Source: Candidatus Nomurabacteria bacterium (lineage in GTDB: Bacteria > Patescibacteriota > Minisyncoccia > Phycocordibacterales > UBA9973). From it: DNA of 64,000 nt. Of this stretch, positions 5,400 through 64,000 are shown one piece after another. Both the position numbers and the translations under genes were made by a program. A model generated the notes under the pieces. The model worked only from the letters and a program-made list of their open reading frames with translations. It was not told the origin of the DNA and ran no database searches. The stretch is taken from positions 30,754 through 94,753 of the forward strand of contig JARIGO010000022.1 in assembly GCA_029288805.1 (NCBI GenBank), written 5' to 3'. How positions within the stretch are numbered: position 1 is the stretch's first letter; each line of letters opens with the position of its first letter.

Positions 5400-5921
5400 C
5401 TATTCTTGATTTAAAAGCGTGGTTATCTTAGCTACAGTTTCGGCGTACTGAGGCAGCTGATCAGTTTGGGAAACACCAAAGTGTTCAAGCAATGCTAATG
5501 TCGGATGATATGTTATTGCACGACCGTTACCTTGAGTTTCAATCAGTCCTCTGATCTGTAATGCACGTAATGAATATGATGCATTAACACCACGGATCAA
5601 TTCTATTTCCGCCTTTGTGGCGCCTGGCTTATAGACGACAATAGCCAATGTTTCTGCACTGGCCTTGCTGAGCTCTTTTTGGAGCTCTTCCTTACGAATA
5701 GTCTCAAGCACCGCACTGAATTCTGGTCGAGTAGCCAAGGTTACACTGTCCCCTTGCCTGACAAGCATCATGGCATGGCCTTCGAAATGTTGTGAAAGTG
5801 TCGCAAGCGCTTCCTCAACAGCTTCCTGAGTAGCATCTAAAAGTTTTGCCAATCCTGAGACAGTATATGAATCAGCAGTTGCGAAAAGAATGCTTTCAAT
5901 TGTGGTTGATAGGTTATTCAT
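5400..5921 (-). CDS. scpB: segregation and condensation protein B
   Basis: Tandem winged-helix ScpB signature (IESILFATADSYTVSGLAKLL ... AIVVYKPGATKAEIELIRGVNASYSLRALQIRGLIE). Start set at the internal MNNLSTT methionine so the gene does not overlap scpA by 77 nt. Confidence 0.8.
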   Translation of the reverse strand: MNNLSTTIESILFATADSYTVSGLAKLLDATQEAVEEALATLSQHFEGHAMMLVRQGDSVTLATRPEFSAVLETIRKEELQKELSKASAETLAIVVYKPGATKAEIELIRGVNASYSLRALQIRGLIETQGNGRAITYHPTLALLEHFGVSQTDQLPQYAETVAKITTLLNQE

Positions 5922-6687
5922 AGGAAGCTTCTGCGGAACTAGTATCAATCGGCTGCGCATCAACATTCTTTTGAAGTGAAATATCCTCAAAGAGATTGTT
6001 TTGTTCAGCCGCTATTAGTCCGCGTCGTACCAACTCTAGCATACCAAGAAATGAGACAATCGTGTAGACCTTCACGCTGTGGTCATCCTGATCCGGCGAC
6101 ATGACACGAATGGCATTGAAGCTTGTTGTCATGGCGCGTTCGATGCGCTCTTGTAATGTATTCAAAACTTCACTGATGGAAATAGTTTTGTAGACGCGTG
6201 CCTCTGGTTTCTTTGGAGCAGGCGGCGGCACGCGGCCAACCATATCAAGCACCAAGCCTGGCAACTGATCGAGCAACAATTTTTCATCTGGCGCAAAGAC
6301 AACTCCGCTCAAGCGTCGTACGCCTTCGAATGACACTTTCTTGCCGTATTGTTTGGTAAGCTCACCGGCAACCTGCCCTACGATTTGATACAGTGCTACA
6401 CGACGCTCAAGGTCAGTGATGGATTCTGTTTCCTCGGGTGTCAACTCGAGGTTTGGCAACAGTGAGCGTGCTTTTATTAAAATAAGCGTCGCCGCTACGG
6501 CCAAAAAGTTTGCCACCTCTCCAGGCTGCATACCGGCTGTTTGCATGTAGGTAATGAAGTCATCCGTTACAGCGGCAAGCGAAACGTCATTCACGAACAA
6601 CTTTCGCTTTTCAATCAGTTCCAGAAGCACCTCAACCGGCCCCTCAAAGATCTCCTGCTTTATCTTAAACGTAGTGTCAGTTTCCAT
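5914..6687 (-). CDS. scpA: segregation and condensation protein A
   Basis: 257 aa. N-terminal FEGPVEVLLELIEKRKLFVNDVSLAAVTDDFITYMQ is typical of the ScpA kleisin. Lies upstream of scpB. Confidence 0.85.
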   Translation of the reverse strand: METDTTFKIKQEIFEGPVEVLLELIEKRKLFVNDVSLAAVTDDFITYMQTAGMQPGEVANFLAVAATLILIKARSLLPNLELTPEETESITDLERRVALYQIVGQVAGELTKQYGKKVSFEGVRRLSGVVFAPDEKLLLDQLPGLVLDMVGRVPPPAPKKPEARVYKTISISEVLNTLQERIERAMTTSFNAIRVMSPDQDDHSVKVYTIVSFLGMLELVRRGLIAAEQNNLFEDISLQKNVDAQPIDTSSAEASYE

Positions 6688-6726: not shown

Positions 6727-8151
6727 CTATTGTTTCGGCTTTTTTAGGACGATATGCAGTTCTTCTACCTGCTTTTCACTGATAGTGGACGGTGCGGACA
6801 TCATTGGATCCTTTCCTTCTCCAGTCTTTGGAAATGCCATGACTTCACGAATGTTTGGTTCATTCAAAAGCAGCATCATGAGACGGTCAAAGCCCCAGGC
6901 AATACCGCCGTGTGGAGGCGTGCCAAGCTTGAATGCCTGTAGCATGTGACCAAAGTCACTTTCAATAGTTTCAACTGAGTGGCCGAGCAATTCAAAAACC
7001 TTGGACAATGCTTCGAATGAGTGATTACGAATAGAACCTCCACCGATTTCAAAACCGTTCAAAACGATATCGTATTGCGTCGTAAGGATACTTCCTACGG
7101 CTTCCTTGTTCATGAGATTACTCATATGCTCTTCAATCGGTCGTGAAAATGGATTGTGCGTATACGTCCATTCACCTTGTGCGTCAGGGTTGTCACTCTT
7201 ACTGGTTGATTCGAAAAATGGAAAATCTATGACCCAGCAAAATGCGAGCGAGTTTGGATCTTCTTTGTCATTACGGATATCAGGACGGTCATTGCCATAC
7301 TGCTCCATGGCGTCTTTGTATGAAATACGAGGAAATGGAATCTCTTGGATTTTCTTTTCAGGAAAGAGCTTTTGCACAATGTTGATGAGCAATGCTTCGT
7401 TCATCTGCATCACGGCTTCGCGATCCACGAAACTCATTTCCATATCAAGCTGAGTGAATTCGGGCTGGCGATCTCCACGGCCGTCTTCATCACGCATGCA
7501 TTTTGCGAACTGGAAGTATCGTTCCACTCCACCAGTCATGAGCAGCTGCTTATACTGCTGCGGTGATTGCGGCAAGGCATAAAAATGATTTGGGTAGAGA
7601 CGTGAAGGAACAACATAGTCACGCGCACCTTCAGGGGTAGACTTTGTAAGAATAGGAGTTTCTACTTCGATGAACTTTTGGTCATGCAAAAAGTCACGTA
7701 CGTATTTTTGCACCTCATCGCGCTTTCGCATATTGCGCTGCATGCGGGCACTGCGAAGATCCAAGTAGCGGTGCTTCAAGCGAGATTCCTCACCTACTTC
7801 CTTGGTATCCACATTGATCTCAAACGGCAACGGTTCTGCTTTGTTTAAAATAGTAAGAGCAGTGATTTCCAATTCAATGTCACCATTCTGCTTGTCGGCC
7901 TGCACGTTGCGTTCTGGGCGCTTGTTGATGATACCCTCCACAGCTACGACAGATTCAGGACGGGCATCCTTTACAGCCTCAGCCATTTCAGCGGCGCGGT
8001 TTGGCAAAATAACACCCTGGATGTACCCAGTCATGTCACGGAAATCAAAAAAGACGAGCTTTCCCTGGTCGCGACGAACGTCGATCCAGCCTTTGAATAA
8101 AATAGTTTCTCCAACGTGCGCTCCCGCGTCACCAATATATGTGCGTTCCAT
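6727..8151 (-). CDS. aspS: aspartyl-tRNA synthetase, short archaeal/eukaryal-type (no GAD insertion)
   Basis: 474 aa. N-terminal OB anticodon-binding fold, class II motifs (FRDE, GGGSIRNH, GxDR). The length fits the non-bacterial type. Confidence 0.9.
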   Translation of the reverse strand: MERTYIGDAGAHVGETILFKGWIDVRRDQGKLVFFDFRDMTGYIQGVILPNRAAEMAEAVKDARPESVVAVEGIINKRPERNVQADKQNGDIELEITALTILNKAEPLPFEINVDTKEVGEESRLKHRYLDLRSARMQRNMRKRDEVQKYVRDFLHDQKFIEVETPILTKSTPEGARDYVVPSRLYPNHFYALPQSPQQYKQLLMTGGVERYFQFAKCMRDEDGRGDRQPEFTQLDMEMSFVDREAVMQMNEALLINIVQKLFPEKKIQEIPFPRISYKDAMEQYGNDRPDIRNDKEDPNSLAFCWVIDFPFFESTSKSDNPDAQGEWTYTHNPFSRPIEEHMSNLMNKEAVGSILTTQYDIVLNGFEIGGGSIRNHSFEALSKVFELLGHSVETIESDFGHMLQAFKLGTPPHGGIAWGFDRLMMLLLNEPNIREVMAFPKTGEGKDPMMSAPSTISEKQVEELHIVLKKPKQ

Positions 8152-9167: not shown

Positions 9168-10970
9168 TTAGTTCTGATTGATTGCAAATTCAGCAGCCTT
9201 ATAAAGCTTTCTAAATATGCCTCCTTCGATAACCATAAGATCACTCTTCTTTCCGTTCTCAACAATTTTGCCATTATGTAAAACAATAATGCGATCGACG
9301 ATTTTAAGTGACATGTAGCGATGTGAAATAATCAGCGCGGTCTTATCCTTAATGACAGTTTTATATTGCTCAACGATTTCTTTTTCTGCTTCAGGATCTA
9401 ATGCTGAAGTGAACTCATCGAGCAAAACTAATTTCGGATCTCTCAGCATCAAGCCAGCCAAACCAAGTTTTTGATTTTGACCGCCTGAAAGTTTTACTGA
9501 ATCCTTGAAAATCCTATCAACTTTCTGATGCAGCTGATTTGGGAGCTTTTCTGTGTATTCTTTCAAACCTACCCTCTCAAGTATTTGCCACACCTGAAAA
9601 TCACTGCACGGATATCCAGGTCGCGTTGCTAGAATAGCTGATCTAATTGTCGTCTTGAGGGTGGTAAAATCTTGAAATAATGCTCCAGTAATGTTGAGCA
9701 GGCTTTCCCGTTTCAATAACCTAAGATCAATACCGTTAACACGAATACTTCCTTTATCCGGATCGTAAAAACGCAACAACAGCATGCCAATAGTGGTCTT
9801 ACCTTCGCCGTTTTTAGCAATAAGCCCGATGGTTTCTCCCGGATTAATGACAAAACTTACACCTTGCAGTACGTAGTTTTTTGACCCAGGATACTTAAAG
9901 TACACGTCATCAAACTCAATGTGAGGAACAATAGTGTCATCAACATCAATCGCGCCGGAAACATCCTGAATAGCGGGAGCACTGTCAACGACCAGGAAAA
10001 AGTCCTCGGCTTTCTTGGATGCAATCTCCAAATCGATCAGTCCAGTTGTAGCCTGATCGAGGCTGTCAGACATTCGACTTATTGATCCAAACAGAATGAA
10101 CAATGTGCCAACTGTGGCTTCATGATGCTCAACTTTTGTGATCAAGGAAAATACCATAAACGCCAACAGAGTATAGAACCACATGTTTCCCCAGTAATTA
10201 ATAATTGCGAAGTGCTCATTGTTTCTATACTCAAAGAAATTTAACCTGCTTCGAATGCTGTCGAACATGCCGAGGAAATGACTGCGAGAGCTGTTTAATA
10301 TGGATTCTTTTGTACCGATGTAGCTAGAGAGCGTGTCCTTGTAGCGCTGCACTTCATTCAATCGTTTTTCCTGGGCATACCTTCGAACCTTACGCTTCCT
10401 TGAAAAATACATCCGAGGCGTGATCATGGCGATTACTACTATGAAATACCACCATTCAATGAATGAAAGCATGACCGCAGCCACAATCACAGTGAGTACC
10501 GAAAGTATCAAATTCCATTCAAGAAAAAATATTTCCTGGATAGCGCTTTGGTTACGATTGGCATTGTTTAATGCGTCCTGCATCTGAGGATTTTCCCTGT
10601 CTTGCAAGTCAAATTTTGCATATGACTGCCAGTAAAACCTTTGTGTTTGTTCTGTGCTGATTTCTCGAAAGCGCAATTCCAGCTTTCTCCTTGCAAATTG
10701 CAGACTTCCAGGAATGACGTCAACAAGAAAGTTAGCGATCACGGCAATGATCAGTGGTAATCCTGTAAATACAGACTTCTGACCGACAATCCTGTTGGTC
10801 AACTGTCCGAACATCCACGAATCAACTGTCCACATCTGCGTAATGATGCAGGACAAGACAAAACCGATAAGAAATAGTCTCTTATTGGCTTTGTTATTGG
10901 CAAATAAGAGCGTGTTAGTGCGCCAGATCATCCTGATACTGGAAAGCGCCTTCTGTTTTAATTTCTTCAT
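9168..10970 (-). CDS. ABC transporter, fused permease/ATP-binding subunit (MsbA-like exporter)
   Basis: 600 aa. Six N-terminal TM helices, then a C-terminal NBD with Walker A, the LSGGQNQKLGLAGLML signature and a Walker B LLDEFTSALD. Confidence 0.9.
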   Translation of the reverse strand: MKKLKQKALSSIRMIWRTNTLLFANNKANKRLFLIGFVLSCIITQMWTVDSWMFGQLTNRIVGQKSVFTGLPLIIAVIANFLVDVIPGSLQFARRKLELRFREISTEQTQRFYWQSYAKFDLQDRENPQMQDALNNANRNQSAIQEIFFLEWNLILSVLTVIVAAVMLSFIEWWYFIVVIAMITPRMYFSRKRKVRRYAQEKRLNEVQRYKDTLSSYIGTKESILNSSRSHFLGMFDSIRSRLNFFEYRNNEHFAIINYWGNMWFYTLLAFMVFSLITKVEHHEATVGTLFILFGSISRMSDSLDQATTGLIDLEIASKKAEDFFLVVDSAPAIQDVSGAIDVDDTIVPHIEFDDVYFKYPGSKNYVLQGVSFVINPGETIGLIAKNGEGKTTIGMLLLRFYDPDKGSIRVNGIDLRLLKRESLLNITGALFQDFTTLKTTIRSAILATRPGYPCSDFQVWQILERVGLKEYTEKLPNQLHQKVDRIFKDSVKLSGGQNQKLGLAGLMLRDPKLVLLDEFTSALDPEAEKEIVEQYKTVIKDKTALIISHRYMSLKIVDRIIVLHNGKIVENGKKSDLMVIEGGIFRKLYKAAEFAINQN

Positions 10971-11085: not shown

Positions 11086-11667
11086 TTATTTTGTTGCGGT
11101 GACAATAATATTTCTTGAGACACCGGAAGATAGTAGGCCATTTACTTTTTGTGGTTGATAATTTTTTAAAAACTTGATGGTAAAGCCGCTATGCTCATAT
11201 AAGTCTACAAGTTCTTTCTCTGTATAATGAACAGGACGAAACGTATCACCTGCGCCAGCCCATACTGCGGAAAATATGCCGCCTGATCGTAATGACCGCT
11301 GCAAACGATCCATTAATAACTCAATGGTTACCTTTGAATTGAATGCAATCGACTTGCCATATATAAAGTCAAAAAATGACTCCGGGGCATCATATTCATC
11401 AAATGATGAGACAATTCTTTCCAGGCGCTTATCGTCTAAAGAAATAATGTCATTATCAAGCAAGGATATGCTTGTATCGACATTTATTACACAAGAGAAG
11501 CCTGCTTCATTTAATAAATAATTTGAGTTTACCAAACAGGCATCTCCTAAAATCAATGCGTTTTGTTTTTGAGAGACAAGCCTTGAAGTATTGATCATCA
11601 TAGGTTGGACGCGGCCAGATTCACGCTCTTTAAGAATGGCCTTACGCCACGGATCTTTTGTTTCCAT
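11086..11667 (-). CDS. putative class I SAM-dependent methyltransferase-like protein with a degenerate G-loop
   Basis: 193 aa. ALILGDACLVNSN lies where motif I should be, VINVD looks like an acidic beta2 end, and LRSGGIF looks like post-motif II. The fold call is tentative. Confidence 0.4.
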   Translation of the reverse strand: METKDPWRKAILKERESGRVQPMMINTSRLVSQKQNALILGDACLVNSNYLLNEAGFSCVINVDTSISLLDNDIISLDDKRLERIVSSFDEYDAPESFFDFIYGKSIAFNSKVTIELLMDRLQRSLRSGGIFSAVWAGAGDTFRPVHYTEKELVDLYEHSGFTIKFLKNYQPQKVNGLLSSGVSRNIIVTATK

Positions 11668-60290: not shown

Positions 60291-60413
60291 TAATGTATTA
60301 TATCATTTTTGAGTTCGATTCCCCGTAACGTCTTAGGTTATTTTCAGAGAAATGAATTTGAAAACGGCCTTATAAATCAATGTTTATAAGTGTTTGAGGC
60401 TGTGAGCCGCGAG

Positions 60414-60485
60414 TGACCCTACGGGGAATCGAACCCCGATTAACGGCTTGAAAAGCCGGCGTCCTAACCGTTAGACGATAGGGCC
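60414..60485 (-). tRNA. tRNA-Glu (anticodon UUC)
   Basis: Manual cloverleaf: acceptor GGCCCTA/TAGGGTC, D-arm GTCT-AACGGTTA-GGAC, anticodon arm CCGGC-TTTTCAA-GCCG(T), 4-nt variable loop, T-arm CGGGG-TTCGATT-CCCCG, discriminator A, no encoded CCA. Confidence 0.85.
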
Positions 60486-60519
60486 AAATGAGCATTAGAA
60501 TAATGCCAACGTATTATAA

Positions 60520-60570
60520 ATAAAAATAGAAAAAAGTAAACCGCGCTTATGCTTCCATAAGCGCGGTCTT
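60520..60570 (-). terminator. terminator of the 60547-61080 gene; stem overlaps the stop codon
   Basis: ACCGCGCTTATG-gaag-CATAAGCGCGGT 12-bp stem on the minus strand, followed by TTTACTTTTTTCTATTTTT. Confidence 0.6.
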
Positions 60571-61080
60571 GCAAAGTAAGGGTGCGGTCTCATACCTAAA
60601 TGAATACAATTCGGCAAATACACATCCTTGATTGCTAAAAGAGACATAATAGACTTCATCCGCACGCGGTGGGTTTAGAGGAAACACCGTGCAGATAATA
60701 GGTCGTGGAGGGATACATAATGATGATTCGTCCTTCCTTGTACCGCTAAACTCAGGCTCAATTGCCTCAATGACATCACCGGAAGCAAAAACGATAAGCT
60801 TTTTCCCAGTTTCCTTCAGGAGCTTTAGAAAATGAAGCTTGCACATTTTGGGAAAACTCCTTGGCGGTAAGTGCCCGTACGTTTCCTCAATTTGTGGAGC
60901 GTCGAGATACAGGGTCCTGTGCGGATCGTTATCGTCCTCAATCATTTCCATCAGTCGTCCGGGAATTGAAATCTTGCAGATTTCAGGTTCGATACTGCTG
61001 TTCATTGGGCTCTTACACCTGGGTAATAAGCTCTTGCCATACTCAATGAATATGATCTCTGTTTCTTTAAGAAATCGCAT
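60547..61080 (-). CDS. hypothetical protein located between two divergent tRNA genes
   Basis: 177 aa and soluble, with several Cys. No recognisable family. Confidence 0.45.
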   Translation of the reverse strand: MRFLKETEIIFIEYGKSLLPRCKSPMNSSIEPEICKISIPGRLMEMIEDDNDPHRTLYLDAPQIEETYGHLPPRSFPKMCKLHFLKLLKETGKKLIVFASGDVIEAIEPEFSGTRKDESSLCIPPRPIICTVFPLNPPRADEVYYVSFSNQGCVFAELYSFRYETAPLLCKTALMEA

Positions 61081-61162
61081 AGTTAGTAAATTAAGGTATT
61101 TCTTCCAGTTTGCCTAAAATGCATTTTTTTGTCAAACTAGTCCGGTACCACTTCCCAACCCC

Positions 61163-61236
61163 GCGCGGTTAGCTCATATGGTTAGAGCGCAGCATTGACA
61201 TTGCTGAGGTGACAGGTTCGATCCCTGTATCGCGCA
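61163..61236 (+). tRNA. tRNA-Val (anticodon GAC)
   Basis: Manual cloverleaf: acceptor GCGCGGT/ATCGCGC, U8A9, D-arm GCTC-ATATGGTTA-GAGC, anticodon arm CAGCA-TTGACAT-TGCTG, variable AGGTG, T-arm ACAGG-TTCGATC-CCTGT, discriminator A. Confidence 0.9.
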
Positions 61237-61266
61237 CAGTATTAGACTGTAATTCGAAAAAGTAAA

Positions 61267-61307
61267 AAGCCTTATAACGTAAGGCTTTTTACTTTTCAAA
61301 AAGATTA
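61267..61307. terminator. long bidirectional hairpin between tRNA-Val and the GC-rich ORF
   Basis: AAAAGTAAAAAGCCTTA-taacg-TAAGGCTTTTTACTTTT, a stem of about 17 bp. Confidence 0.6.
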
Positions 61308-61325
61308 ACAATTTATAAAATATGC

Positions 61326-61607
61326 CTACACCTTGTAATGGCTGGAACCCCTGCGGAACAGCCTGTCCAGGAACCTCTTCTCAACCCTGGACTGCAGCTC
61401 CTCCCGTGACAGTGGCCTGCTGAGGTACACAAGCCGGTACAGCTGCGCCAGCCTAAAGAGCTCGTCGCGCGCCTGCTCGTCGCTCAGCACCCTTCCGTAC
61501 GCCTTCTCGTACAGCCCTTGGAACGTTTTCAAATTTTCTGGTGTCATGTCCATGCCCGCATGATGACACGCGGTGCCAGCCTTGGCCAGGGCTGAGTCGG
61601 CGGGCAA
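61326..61607 (-). CDS. hypothetical protein encoded in a GC-rich (about 60%) segment; likely horizontally acquired fragment
   Basis: 93-aa ORF. Local composition differs sharply from the flanks (runs like ctgcgccagcc, gtcgcgcgcctgctcgtcgctcag). It lies 90 nt downstream of the tRNA-Val 3' end. Confidence 0.35.
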   Translation of the reverse strand: MPADSALAKAGTACHHAGMDMTPENLKTFQGLYEKAYGRVLSDEQARDELFRLAQLYRLVYLSRPLSREELQSRVEKRFLDRLFRRGSSHYKV

Positions 61608-61658
61608 TTTACCTTACATAACTTTATTATTACTTTAAGATACAGATGCTATGATCTA

Positions 61659-62396
61659 TTGATGAAAGAAAGTATTCCATTAATAGACCCAATTTGGTAT
61701 TCCCCCGTTGTGGTGTTAAACCATGTTACAAGACTGACAAATTCACTATCTGAAAAAGACAGGAAGAGTAAGGAGTTTAGGAAGGTTGTTGAGGCACGAG
61801 CAGCCGCAATTACGCTTTTGGGTTTGATGAAGATTAACGGTACTCAATATTGGATGCAGATTGTGGATGATAAAGAGAGAAGCCCCGACATAAGAACTAT
61901 TTCCTATGCGACGGAGCAGCCGGAAAAATTTGACAACATGGAGCAGCAAGATGTCGAGGTAGTTGAATATGAGCAACATTCAGAAGGGGCCATTCCGGAG
62001 TTCTTAGCCTCGACCAAGTTTGGGCCCGGAAAGAGTTACGACGAGCAAACCCATATTCTTTGCCACCTGGGAGAAGGGACTGTCATAAATTTACCTGATA
62101 TTACTGAGATGAAAAACCAAATGGCCATAATCAATACAAAATCACCGATAGTATTATTAGGGGCAACTTCTCAGGAAGCCACTGACTATCAAATTATTCA
62201 ATTGAATCCCGGTGTTGGTATTTTGGTTGAATTCAACGTTGAGGATGAGGAGCGCATTTTATTCGGAAGGCCCGACTATAAAGGTATCATGTATTTTAAA
62301 AGGGGCTCAAGAAAACCCAGTGTGCATGATCCTAACGATAAGCATTATCCATTTGAAAATATAGGATATGTTCCTGATAAAAATGGCAATTATTGA
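61659..62396 (+). CDS. hypothetical protein
   Basis: 245 aa, soluble and acidic, in an AT-rich context. No motif assigned. Confidence 0.45.
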   Translation: MMKESIPLIDPIWYSPVVVLNHVTRLTNSLSEKDRKSKEFRKVVEARAAAITLLGLMKINGTQYWMQIVDDKERSPDIRTISYATEQPEKFDNMEQQDVEVVEYEQHSEGAIPEFLASTKFGPGKSYDEQTHILCHLGEGTVINLPDITEMKNQMAIINTKSPIVLLGATSQEATDYQIIQLNPGVGILVEFNVEDEERILFGRPDYKGIMYFKRGSRKPSVHDPNDKHYPFENIGYVPDKNGNY

Positions 62397-62523
62397 TATT
62401 ATGTTCTCCCCCACTTATTAACAATAGAGAAGTATTGTTTATCAGAATTTCTCACAAAGAAGTTCCTGACTTCGTACAATAGAGAGCACCAAGACGATAT
62501 TGACGATGTTTTTTGAAATAAAA

Positions 62524-62555
62524 AAGCCTGCAATATTTAAATAACAGGCTTCGGT
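62524..62555. terminator. bidirectional terminator between the convergent 61659-62396 and 62568-62873 genes
   Basis: AAGCCTG-caatatttaaataa-CAGGCTT hairpin with flanking A/T runs. Confidence 0.4.
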
Positions 62556-62567
62556 AGTTGAATTGGT

Positions 62568-62873
62568 TTACATCTTATGTTCCCATCCAGCTTTGGTTAA
62601 TATTTCAATTATTTGATCTTCTTTTAATTCACAGACATCTTTTTGCTGTGCATCAAAGTATTTTGCTTGACCACTTGCATAAAATGACCATGCCGGCACA
62701 CCTACTATGGTTGCGGCACTCGGACTAAAACCTATGCATGCAGAAAAGGTATCTCCTGGAGAAAATCCGAGCTCTCCTTCGAAAGTCATTCTGAACATGA
62801 GTATGTTCTCAGAATTATTTTTATCCGGAAAAACCTTTAGGTCAATTATTGTCATGACATTAACTTTATTCAT
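62568..62873 (-). CDS. hypothetical small protein (cassette gene preceded by repeat copy A)
   Basis: 101 aa. Has the same upstream repeat arrangement as the 63135-63563 gene. Confidence 0.4.
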   Translation of the reverse strand: MNKVNVMTIIDLKVFPDKNNSENILMFRMTFEGELGFSPGDTFSACIGFSPSAATIVGVPAWSFYASGQAKYFDAQQKDVCELKEDQIIEILTKAGWEHKM

Positions 62874-63011
62874 CGCTATATAAGTTTAATTGTTTACCGC
62901 AAATTCCATAAGAATTTCTGGTAAACACTTAAACCATTACAAAGAACTTTACGTTAATATAATATCACGTTTTATATTAAAAGTCAATAGATCCGTATCG
63001 GTTCAATGTCC

Positions 63012-63062
63012 TTAAATACCCTATTCCACTTCAAAATAATACCTTGCACCGTGTTCCATTAC
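63012..63062 (-). repeat. repeat copy A: diverged coding remnant (…WNTVQGIILKWNRVFKD…) homologous to copy B
   Basis: About 75% nt identity over 51 nt with 63620-63670. The minus-strand translation aligns with copy B at the protein level, but is bounded by stop codons on both sides. Confidence 0.6.
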
Positions 63063-63097
63063 TAACTCGTGACCGAACCTTTATCGCTCACAAATTG

Positions 63098-63128
63098 AAA
63101 AGGCTTCTATAAAATAGAAGCCTTTTTA
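63098..63128. terminator. terminator downstream of the 63135-63563 gene
   Basis: AAAAGGCTTCTAT-aaaa-TAGAAGCCTTTTT hairpin. Confidence 0.6.
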
Positions 63129-63134
63129 AGGAAT

Positions 63135-63563
63135 TTAAACAAAATGGAGTTCTCTGGCAGTAGTAACTTGACTGTACTCAAACAAGTCGAGCGTATGGTC
63201 GTTTAGTCGAACAGAATGGTGGAACCAAAAATTTATTCCTTTCTGAACTTCGTGGCCAGTAACCTCACAATATGCAGGGTACTGAATTGCATTAATAAAG
63301 TTTTCGATAGTCTCTTTAATGGTCGTACCACGTATCTTATCTTCAAGGGTTTTTCCATTAACATCCTTGAAGACAATGTAGCCCTCGCCAACAACGTTTA
63401 TGTAATATCCATCACCAGTAGTGGAAACGCACAATATGTTGTGGTCTTTTAAATGATAGTAACCACTTTTCCCATACGTAAATTTAAAAATTTCTTGCAT
63501 GCCTTTTAGGTATGCAAGCGGCTCCTTTTCTGTTGGAAGCAGTATTTGTTTTCTATAGTCCAT
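63135..63563 (-). CDS. hypothetical small protein, possibly SMI1/KNR4 (SUKH)-like immunity-type protein
   Basis: 142 aa. ILCVSTTGDGYYINVVGEGYIVFKD and the overall beta-rich pattern weakly resemble SUKH-1 immunity proteins. A toxin-remnant-like ORF ends 17 nt upstream. Confidence 0.35.
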   Translation of the reverse strand: MDYRKQILLPTEKEPLAYLKGMQEIFKFTYGKSGYYHLKDHNILCVSTTGDGYYINVVGEGYIVFKDVNGKTLEDKIRGTTIKETIENFINAIQYPAYCEVTGHEVQKGINFWFHHSVRLNDHTLDLFEYSQVTTARELHFV

Positions 63564-63579
63564 TTTTTTAAAGTTTTAC

Positions 63580-63726
63580 TCATATTGCCTTATGCAGAGA
63601 ATAAGTCAACCCTCTTTGTTTAAAGACCTTATTCCATTTGATAACAATATTCTGCACGGTGTCCCATTCCAGGCCGCTAACGCGCACAAATTTGACATTT
63701 CTTCCACGTAAGGTAAGGTAAAGAAA
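63580..63726 (-). pseudogene. short ORF/remnant containing repeat copy B (…RVSGLEWDTVQNIVIKWNKVFKQRGLTYSLHKAI*) ending 17 nt upstream of the 63135-63563 gene
   Basis: Open minus-strand frame of about 48 codons bounded upstream by TAA, with only TTG/GTG possible starts. It is homologous to copy A, which points to the C-terminal fragment of a larger gene family. Confidence 0.4.
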
Positions 63727-63751
63727 ATTCAAACTTTAAAAAAATACTCAT

Positions 63752-64000
63752 TATGGACCTTAAAGAAAAAACCATAAAAGACTGGCGAGAAGAGTACTTG
63801 AATGACTTCCTTCCTTCAAAGAAAAGAATGCTCCAACAAATTAACCTTCAGGAAGTGGAAATAATGACAGGGCTCATTAAGGCTATTAAAGAAGCCATCC
63901 CTGCAGGAAAATGGAAAACATATTTTGACGAACATCTTGATTACTCACTTCCGTGGGAAAGAACGGTTATTTCAAACAGCGAAGGTGCTAAGGGTCATCT
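63752..64000 (+). CDS. hypothetical protein, 5' part (continues beyond window)
   Basis: Open frame from ATG 63752 (MDLKEKTIKDWREEYLNDFLPSKKRML...) to the window edge. Confidence 0.4.

Follow-up and report, generated by a model that had tools for sequence, protein, structure and literature searches.

Heads of small gene cassettes recur in a variable island next to a tRNA-Val gene of a Candidatus Nomurabacteria bacterium

The window, a 64,000-nucleotide stretch of DNA from a Candidatus Nomurabacteria bacterium, contains two repeats, A and B, each of them the head of a small gene cassette; the cassettes form a stack within a variable island, which starts at the 3′ end of a tRNA-Val(GAC) gene (Table 1). 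The heads are probably att-type junctions of tiny cassettes lacking an integrase, which a recombinase acting in trans has stacked at tRNA-Val. A head comprises three parts. The first is a core of ~33 nt, with the initial 10-13 nt corresponding to the 3′ acceptor strand of the tRNA and the rest resembling the T-arm, which is conserved as DNA. The second is an ORF of 33-41 codons, with a GTG or ATG start inside the core and an amphipathic segment that is conserved as protein. The third is a variable tail, which contains either a promoter and leader for the next gene or a Ser-rich motif of ATCGTC repeats. The fusion of the junction to a selected 35-aa ORF is the unusual feature of the array.

Table 1 Features of the cassette array and its tRNA border in the 64,000-nt window
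Feature	Position	Strand	Description
tRNA-Val(GAC)	61163..61237	+	Detected by ARAGORN and Rfam; 3′ end is the proximal border of the island
Variable AT-richer island	61238..64000	.	GC 0.39 versus 0.44 in the rest of the window; runs off the window end
Remnant C	62493..62514	-	Head tail motif AAAAAACATCGTCAATATCGTC only; just past the hairpin and T-tract of the 101-aa gene
101-aa cargo gene	62568..62873	-	Orphan; sole database match is itself
Promoter-like TTGACT-17-TATTAT for the 101-aa gene	62959..62987	-	10/12 matches, TG-extended; overlaps the stop codon of head A
Head A	62984..~63091-63097	-	Decayed copy; 12-nt insertion after codon 9 with TAG and TAA
Hairpin and T-tract	63095..63129	.	16-nt arms, 94% complementary; closes the 142-aa cassette and abuts the core of head A
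142-aa cargo gene	63135..63563	-	Putative protein; not SUKH-like
Head B	63580..63687	-	Intact micro-ORF, GTG start, 35 aa, VRVSGLEWDTVQNIVIKWNKVFKQRGLTYSLHKAI and stop
Promoter-like TTGACT-16-CAATAT in the tail of head B	63582..63609	-	Read by eye; absent from the output of the scan tool
Core of head B (codons 1-11)	63655..63687	-	Reverse complement of the diverged tRNA-Val 3′ end; acceptor strand and T-arm-like sequence
Left arm of head B	63688..63752	+	Outward TTGACA-16-TAAGGT promoter-like site toward the divergent gene
Divergent cargo gene, 5′ part	63753..64000	+	Cut by the window end; weak DUF3102 match only

An earlier note on this DNA had described two similar copies at 63012-63062 and 63620-63670, with ~75% identity and homologous peptides encoded on the minus strand. 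The similarity is real, the translations confirm the peptides, and the copies are longer than had been described. The sequences at 63012-63060 and 63620-63668 share 78% identity across 49 nt, and when an in-frame indel of 12 nt, equal to four codons, is allowed, the similarity runs on to 63082-63096 and 63678-63692. Therefore, each copy spans ~108 nt. A degenerate pattern that fits both copies has only these two sites in the 64 kb, with zero expected from 100 shuffles. Copy A had been described as broken by stops, and its translation reads VSDKGSVTS, two stops, the still recognizable body WNTVQGIILKWNRVFKDIEPIRIY, and a terminal stop. The interrupting TAG and TAA codons are located in the 12-nt insertion; therefore, copy A is a decayed copy. 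Along the minus strand, head B is followed by a gap of 16 nt (not 17 nt, as previously counted) between its stop codon and the ATG of the 142-aa gene, then by the 142-aa gene, the hairpin with its T-tract, head A, a promoter-like site, and the 101-aa gene; the distance of ~110 nt that had been given from copy A to the 101-aa gene is correct. Remnant C, which had escaped notice together with the link to tRNA-Val, is a third, truncated head, most of which has been deleted. Its motif occurs elsewhere only in the tails of three heads, e1-e3, of the related contig L072.

Four Patescibacteria contigs were found to carry the element: that of the window, an NCBI contig of 105 kb (105,370 bp), and the contigs L001, L004, and L072. 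Nine head copies from these four contigs were compared. The 1.5-kb Logan contig L001 contains three heads and a homologue of the 142-aa protein with 86% identity; two of the heads flank the 142-aa gene, the first lying upstream of it and the second past its terminator, whereas the third head precedes a convergent 223-aa gene. L004, which belongs to Ca. Nomurabacteria UBA5155 and was identified with a looser DNA pattern, has one head between a terminator and a 157-aa gene. L072 has five heads in a single orientation, four of them full and one reduced to the core, followed by tRNA-Val. The most decayed copies are nearest to the tRNA in the window, the most decayed head of L072 is the farthest from it, and there is no simple order in which older heads are more distal.

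Searches for further copies covered both DNA and protein collections. The strict back-translated pattern TGGRAYACNGTNCAR-N12-AARTGGAAYARRGTNTTYAA had zero matches in genome, metagenome, and viral collections, which did not include the source contig. The looser pattern CTGGRATGGRACACNGTGCA matched 65 loci in the genome and metagenome collections, of which L004 is the only genuine one. The remaining loci match the core pattern only, and many of them are Actinobacteria coding sequences reading IHSAKGLEWDTV. This conserved coding motif, which we read as helicase-like, is present in L002, L011-L013, and ~20 further Actinobacteria loci that are not related to the element. Scans of the viral collection for the head returned chance matches only. 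The profile of the head peptide had a sole match among 5.8 billion proteins, the 33-aa protein MRDTCLEWNTVQDIVLKWNKVFSGLEKISSIAS encoded on L072.

The pattern of substitutions in the nine copies supports the conclusion that the head sequence is or was protein-coding in the reading frame proposed earlier. In this frame, codons 12-24 have a pS of 0.72 and a pN/pS of 0.30, versus pS values of 0.19 and 0.32 and pN/pS values of 1.71 and 0.97 in the other two frames. The conservation at the protein level that had been claimed from two copies is thus borne out. The Thr, Ile, Val, and Phe codons of the segment differ at third positions only. Codons 1-11 have a pS of ~0.21 and a pN/pS of ~0.8, which are alike in all three frames. 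Judged from these values, constraint acts at the DNA level on codons 1-11 and at the protein level on codons 12-24. It had been noted that the frame has no ATG, which is true for copies A and B; however, an in-frame GTG at 63687-63685 acts as a conserved start position. GTG is present in every copy that reaches the equivalent position, at all loci, and is replaced by ATG in head e2 of L072. The micro-ORFs are 33-41 codons long, and, leaving aside ORFs antisense to other genes, no copy extends upstream into a longer in-frame ORF. An alternative 12-codon ATG ORF shared by A and B (MEHGARYYFEVE and MGHRAEYCYQME) corresponds to frame 1, with the pN/pS of 1.71, and was rejected because the substitutions would fall mainly on codon positions 1 and 2. 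Antisense coding was rejected as well, since it would need radical codon changes.

The conserved amphipathic segment of the micro-ORF, LEWNTVQxI[VI]xxWNxVF, is followed by variable C-terminal tails of 8-18 residues, such as EKISSIAS, EKISSISSIPYFH, and TKTSSLSSTMSFK. Two types of tail were distinguished. In head B, L001 c2, and L072 e4, the tail consists of a TTGACA or TTGACT promoter-like site and an A-rich leader that reaches the ATG of the cargo gene. In L072 e1-e3, it contains the motif AAAAAYATCGTC-N3/4-ATCGTC, which is Ser-rich and read as K[IT]SS[IL]SS. An N-terminal part that is invariant in the alignment, joined to a variable C-terminal part, is the arrangement expected if the micro-ORFs encode precursor peptides of the RiPP type, with a conserved leader of ~24 aa and a hypervariable, often Ser/Thr-rich core peptide. 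Such a system would resemble the prochlorosins, which have many precursor genes. However, the island genes include no maturase, protease, or dedicated transporter domains, the peptides are poor in Cys and lack a conserved cleavage motif, some of the tails are simply promoters for the next gene, and the tRNA-like core would be left unexplained. We consider this interpretation very improbable.

The tails and their surroundings contain signals that could also belong to a regulatory element. A 16-nt A-rich leader joins the tail of head B to the 142-aa gene, and the module of the TTGACT-16-CAATAT type together with its leader is conserved in L001 c2 and L072 e4. These three heads also have a left arm in common, in which a TTGACA promoter-like site faces outward, toward a different divergent gene in each case. 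It is nevertheless very unlikely that the repeats are purely regulatory, non-coding promoter or 5′UTR modules. The promoter-like hexamers in or beside the tails, and the recurrence of the leader AAAGAAAACTTAAAAA before different genes, would fit such modules, but the low pN/pS and the restriction of changes to third positions are specific to one frame, the start codon is swapped from GTG to ATG in place, and what comes next after L072 e1-e3 and L001 c1 is a terminator or a convergent gene rather than a same-strand gene. At heads located downstream of a terminator, neither a promoter nor a ribosome-binding site can be seen. When seven heads were folded as single-stranded DNA, the z-scores ranged from -1.8 to +1.8, and the heads had no structure in common. 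In the Rfam search, two tRNAs alone pass the gathering threshold, and nothing relevant was found at E<=1 in 62400-63800. Several other candidates were rejected: a sigma-54 promoter, the GG-to-GC spacing of which is off by 2 nt; an ECF-type promoter, for which there is no fitting -10; a TR/VR pair of a diversity-generating retroelement, as the differences are not limited to adenines; and a tmRNA-like unit, as the ORF and the tRNA-like part sit on opposite strands.

The genes next to the heads are small, and their products have few relatives. The earlier note attributed a weak SUKH/SMI1-like character to the 142-aa product; however, the fold of the protein is not SUKH-like, and it has no match in Pfam, NCBIfam, or PHROG. 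Its few distant homologues are not linked to heads, and neither heads nor tRNA-Val are present on the contigs that encode them (L070, L071, L073-L075). The contigs L073, L074, and L075 all end at most ~60 nt past the terminator of the 142-aa homologue, a sign that the assembly may break on a repeat at that point. The single-sequence structure model of the 101-aa protein has a pLDDT of 49 and is unusable. Exact look-ups of the 142-, 101-, and 177-aa proteins of the window found none on record. A 23-nt inverted repeat with 87% complementarity and a 5-nt loop (62884-62934) is located in the leader of the 101-aa gene, between the promoter-like site and the ATG; it could be an operator or attenuator hairpin.

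The earlier note had suggested that the repeats could be orphan C-terminal tips of toxins, produced by recombination of the 3′ end of a larger gene and paired with immunity genes. A sequence that is conserved as protein, lacks an ATG, and precedes small genes agrees with this model, and orphan tip/immunity modules of Rhs and CdiA likewise have a conserved coding segment repeated before small variable genes. Unlike those modules, the heads have no parent gene, no variable region of the size of a toxin, and no neighbour with an immunity-family fold. They are complete ORFs rather than truncated 3′ ends, and a full-length parent, proposed earlier as a target for homology searches, was not found in any copy or collection searched: single-sequence and profile searches of the 5.8 billion proteins revealed no homologue of the head peptide other than the 33-aa ORF, and tblastn against phage and plasmid collections had no match. 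The variable tails are too short for a toxin domain. The neighbouring genes are mostly unrelated and lie in both orientations, with several heads preceding convergent genes, and no large toxin-like gene is present within the window. The toxin-tip explanation can hardly be correct.

The core connects the heads to the tRNA gene. These 33 nt at the start of a head repeat the tRNA-Val(GAC) 3′ end in direct orientation, though in diverged form. The core starts with GTGCGCGATA, which is the reverse complement of ...TATCGCGCAC, the sequence at the 3′ end of tRNA-Val that forms the acceptor strand. The first 10-13 nt are identical to the tRNA, and the remainder resembles the T-arm but is diverged. Local alignments extend into the T-arm-like stretch and into the 3′ flank of the tRNA as found in L004. 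When six copies were aligned to the tRNA of L004 and its flank, five scored above all 2000 shuffles, and the copy L1c1 reached p = 0.012. In all three contigs that are long enough (the window, L004, and L072), the copies are positioned downstream of the tRNA-Val 3′ end, always on that side and in the orientation of the tRNA; the distance in the window is 1.8-2.4 kb. The T-tract of a hairpin abuts GTGCGCGATA at the heads, and that of the last cassette's terminator does likewise at the genuine tRNA in L072. The cores diverge from the real tRNA past ~13 nt and have a consensus of their own. They are copies of one another rather than tRNA ends displaced in independent events.

Synteny, too, breaks at the 3′ end of tRNA-Val. 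The window aligns with L004 and L072 across tRNA-Glu, the spacer, and tRNA-Val, and the blastn alignments end at 61238. The islands of L004 and L072 extend from tsaD to tRNA-Val and contain one and five heads, respectively. They have a tRNA synthetase gene, tsaD, tRNA-Val, and the heads in common, and almost nothing else from tsaD to the tRNA. The islands are AT-richer than their flanks, and within them the heads separate mostly unrelated small genes, which are present in either orientation. The repeats do mark a cassette-like array of small genes, as the cassette signature proposed in the earlier note implied. The cargo proteins are unrelated, save for the 142-aa gene and two weak pairs, and their repertoire includes Ham1, NT5C, a histidine-phosphatase-like protein, P-loop proteins, and many orphans.

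Additional features were observed within and next to the islands. The order tRNA-Glu, one gene, tRNA-Val is common to the window (60413-61237) and L072 (11661-12496); the genes between the two tRNAs encode proteins of 177 aa and 170 aa, respectively, without similarity to each other. Beginning 20 nt downstream of tRNA-Val in the window is a perfect 17-nt inverted repeat with a 5-nt loop (61258-61296), probably a bidirectional terminator. Right after tRNA-Val, within the AT-richer island (GC ~0.37), there is also a 282-nt segment (61326-61607) with a GC content of 0.60, which encodes a 93-aa minus-strand ORF without a family match and, by its composition, looks like a foreign insert. Two genes of the L072 island (5660-6007 and 11243-11623) encode paralogues of 115 aa and 126 aa with 29% identity. 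Related P-loop proteins are encoded near the tsaD side of both complete islands (L004 3559-4197 and L072 4597-5229).

A comparison of L004 and L072 reveals a swap of arms at the core. In L004, an arm of ~65 nt (7813-7875) adjoins the genuine tRNA-Val; in L072, the same arm (9935-10000) adjoins the core of head e2. The homology comprises L004 7813-7887 and L072 9939-10012, and the switch occurs directly after GCGCGATACA, past which one sequence continues into the body of the tRNA and the other into the body of the micro-ORF. This is the relation predicted for site-specific exchange, in which the two sequences would represent an attL junction and an element-element, attP-like junction. In L072, the AATGGAACACCGTG of head e2 and the sequence that follows it recur as inverted copies in the left arm of that head (9935-9948 with 10020-10033, and 9966-9980 with 10032-10046). 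This arm, of the CACAGTGTTCCATT type, also flanks the real tRNA in L004. The inverted repeats of the e2 arm could be recombinase-binding repeats.

The main rival to site-specific exchange is homologous recombination between paralogous micro-ORF genes. In that case, the heads would be genes of micro-proteins, the 75-110 nt of similarity would merely anchor recombination after DNA uptake without a dedicated recombinase, and the resemblance to the tRNA would be historical or incidental. Such an origin fits the strong purifying selection on the peptide, the absence of a recombinase from two complete islands, the conservation of promoter and leader modules on both sides of some heads, and the joining of the same head to different cargo with a switch near the cargo start codon. 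However, the sequences exchanged between the real tRNA and the head share just 10-13 nt, which is too short for RecA-type recombination, and the break in synteny falls exactly at the end of the tRNA. Furthermore, the synonymous divergence of the core is three-fold lower than that of the rest of the ORF, which fits a site conserved as DNA, although gene conversion could mimic this effect. Homologous recombination is an unlikely explanation for the array.

Site-specific stacking would require a recombinase encoded elsewhere. No recombinase domains were found in the complete islands of L004 and L072. In the window, the island of which is cut at position 64000, none were found by Pfam in the 20 mid-size ORFs and the island genes scanned, and a rough check for recombinase motifs was negative. 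This result counts against site-specific stacking, as do the cores being copies of one another, the lack of a simple order of decay, the heads with no promoter in view, and the restriction of the element to four contigs; circular junctions and empty sites were not seen either. The recombinase acting in trans would link the short core carried by a circular cassette with the stretch of the same sequence at the tRNA end, or with another head. Each integration would restore the tRNA and push the older cassettes along. If the exchange is site-specific, the crossover would take place within the core at GCGCGATA(C/G), where the breakpoints of cassette gain and loss would fall. The heads would then be junctions of the attR/attP type, and the cassettes integrase-less, cis-mobilizable mini-elements of 0.4-2.5 kb. 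The micro-ORF may be expressed and have a role. As a guess, it may encode a cassette-borne factor, the upstream context of which would differ between the integrated and excised states.

Stacking at a tRNA gene relates the array to islands seeded by tRNAs, which contain repeats of partial tRNAs from serial integration, for example the tycheposon islands of Prochlorococcus (bioRxiv 10.1101/2020.12.28.424599). The islands analysed here show three characteristics of that class: a border tRNA with a synteny break at its 3′ end, internal direct repeats of the tRNA 3′ segment, and an arm that is joined to the tRNA in one genome and to an element junction in another. As in tycheposon islands, the border tRNA is intact, its partial copies inside the island are in direct orientation, the cargo varies among relatives, and older material is degraded. 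By contrast, the two complete islands contain no integrase or fragment of one, the units are only 0.4-2.5 kb long with one to three genes, and the partial tRNA copies, which have a derived consensus in common, are joined to a micro-ORF under selection. The array also resembles CIMEs, which are integrase-less elements that accrete at the 3′ end of a target gene (PMC5704250). In both cases, att sites are kept, integration genes are absent, units are stacked in tandem, and the recombinase is presumed to act in trans. However, CIMEs originate by decay from ICEs or IMEs, measure several kb, and have a known parent element, whereas no parent or integrase is known for the units described here, every one of which retains the same small ORF. 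In SSV-type integration, attP is located inside the integrase ORF, which is split upon integration. The heads are similar in that a tRNA-derived core is read as codons of an ORF, but their 35-aa ORF merely starts in the core.

In its form, though not in the structure of its sites, the array is comparable to integron cassettes. Like integrons and CALINs, it consists of short, mostly single-gene, unrelated cassettes with one type of repeated site and a fixed docking site. Unlike in integrons and CALINs, the heads have no hairpin of the attC type (z ~0), there is no IntI, docking occurs at a tRNA end, the cassettes have their own promoter-like sites and terminators and are present in either orientation, and the repeated site encodes a peptide. 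Neither an integron integrase nor a tyrosine recombinase was found in the scanned genes of the window or in the islands of L004 and L072. It is conceivable, though doubtful, that the array represents an integron-like mode of gene capture in Patescibacteria, with docking at the 3′ end of tRNA-Val, cassettes of one to three genes, heads of ~100 nt as sites, a conserved 35-aa peptide whose start lies within the crossover core, and a recombinase located elsewhere. The peptide may then take part in recombination or in the maintenance of the cassettes.

Patescibacteria have tiny genomes, from which, to our knowledge, few mobile elements have been reported, and the routes by which they gain strain-specific genes are poorly understood. 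The array identifies one fixed chromosomal site, between tsaD and tRNA-Val, where relatives swap small unrelated genes. Every unit carries the same tRNA-derived junction and micro-ORF, and the genes bring promoter-like sites and terminators with them. The micro-ORF clearly exemplifies a selected protein shorter than 40 aa, and it is mostly missed by gene callers, as indicated by the single homologue among 5.8 billion proteins. The sequence GTGCGCGATAGCnGyCTGGAATGGAACAC... provides a signature for spotting such islands in metagenomes. If the junctions are active recombination sites, the array would be a compact device for gene capture without a resident integrase.
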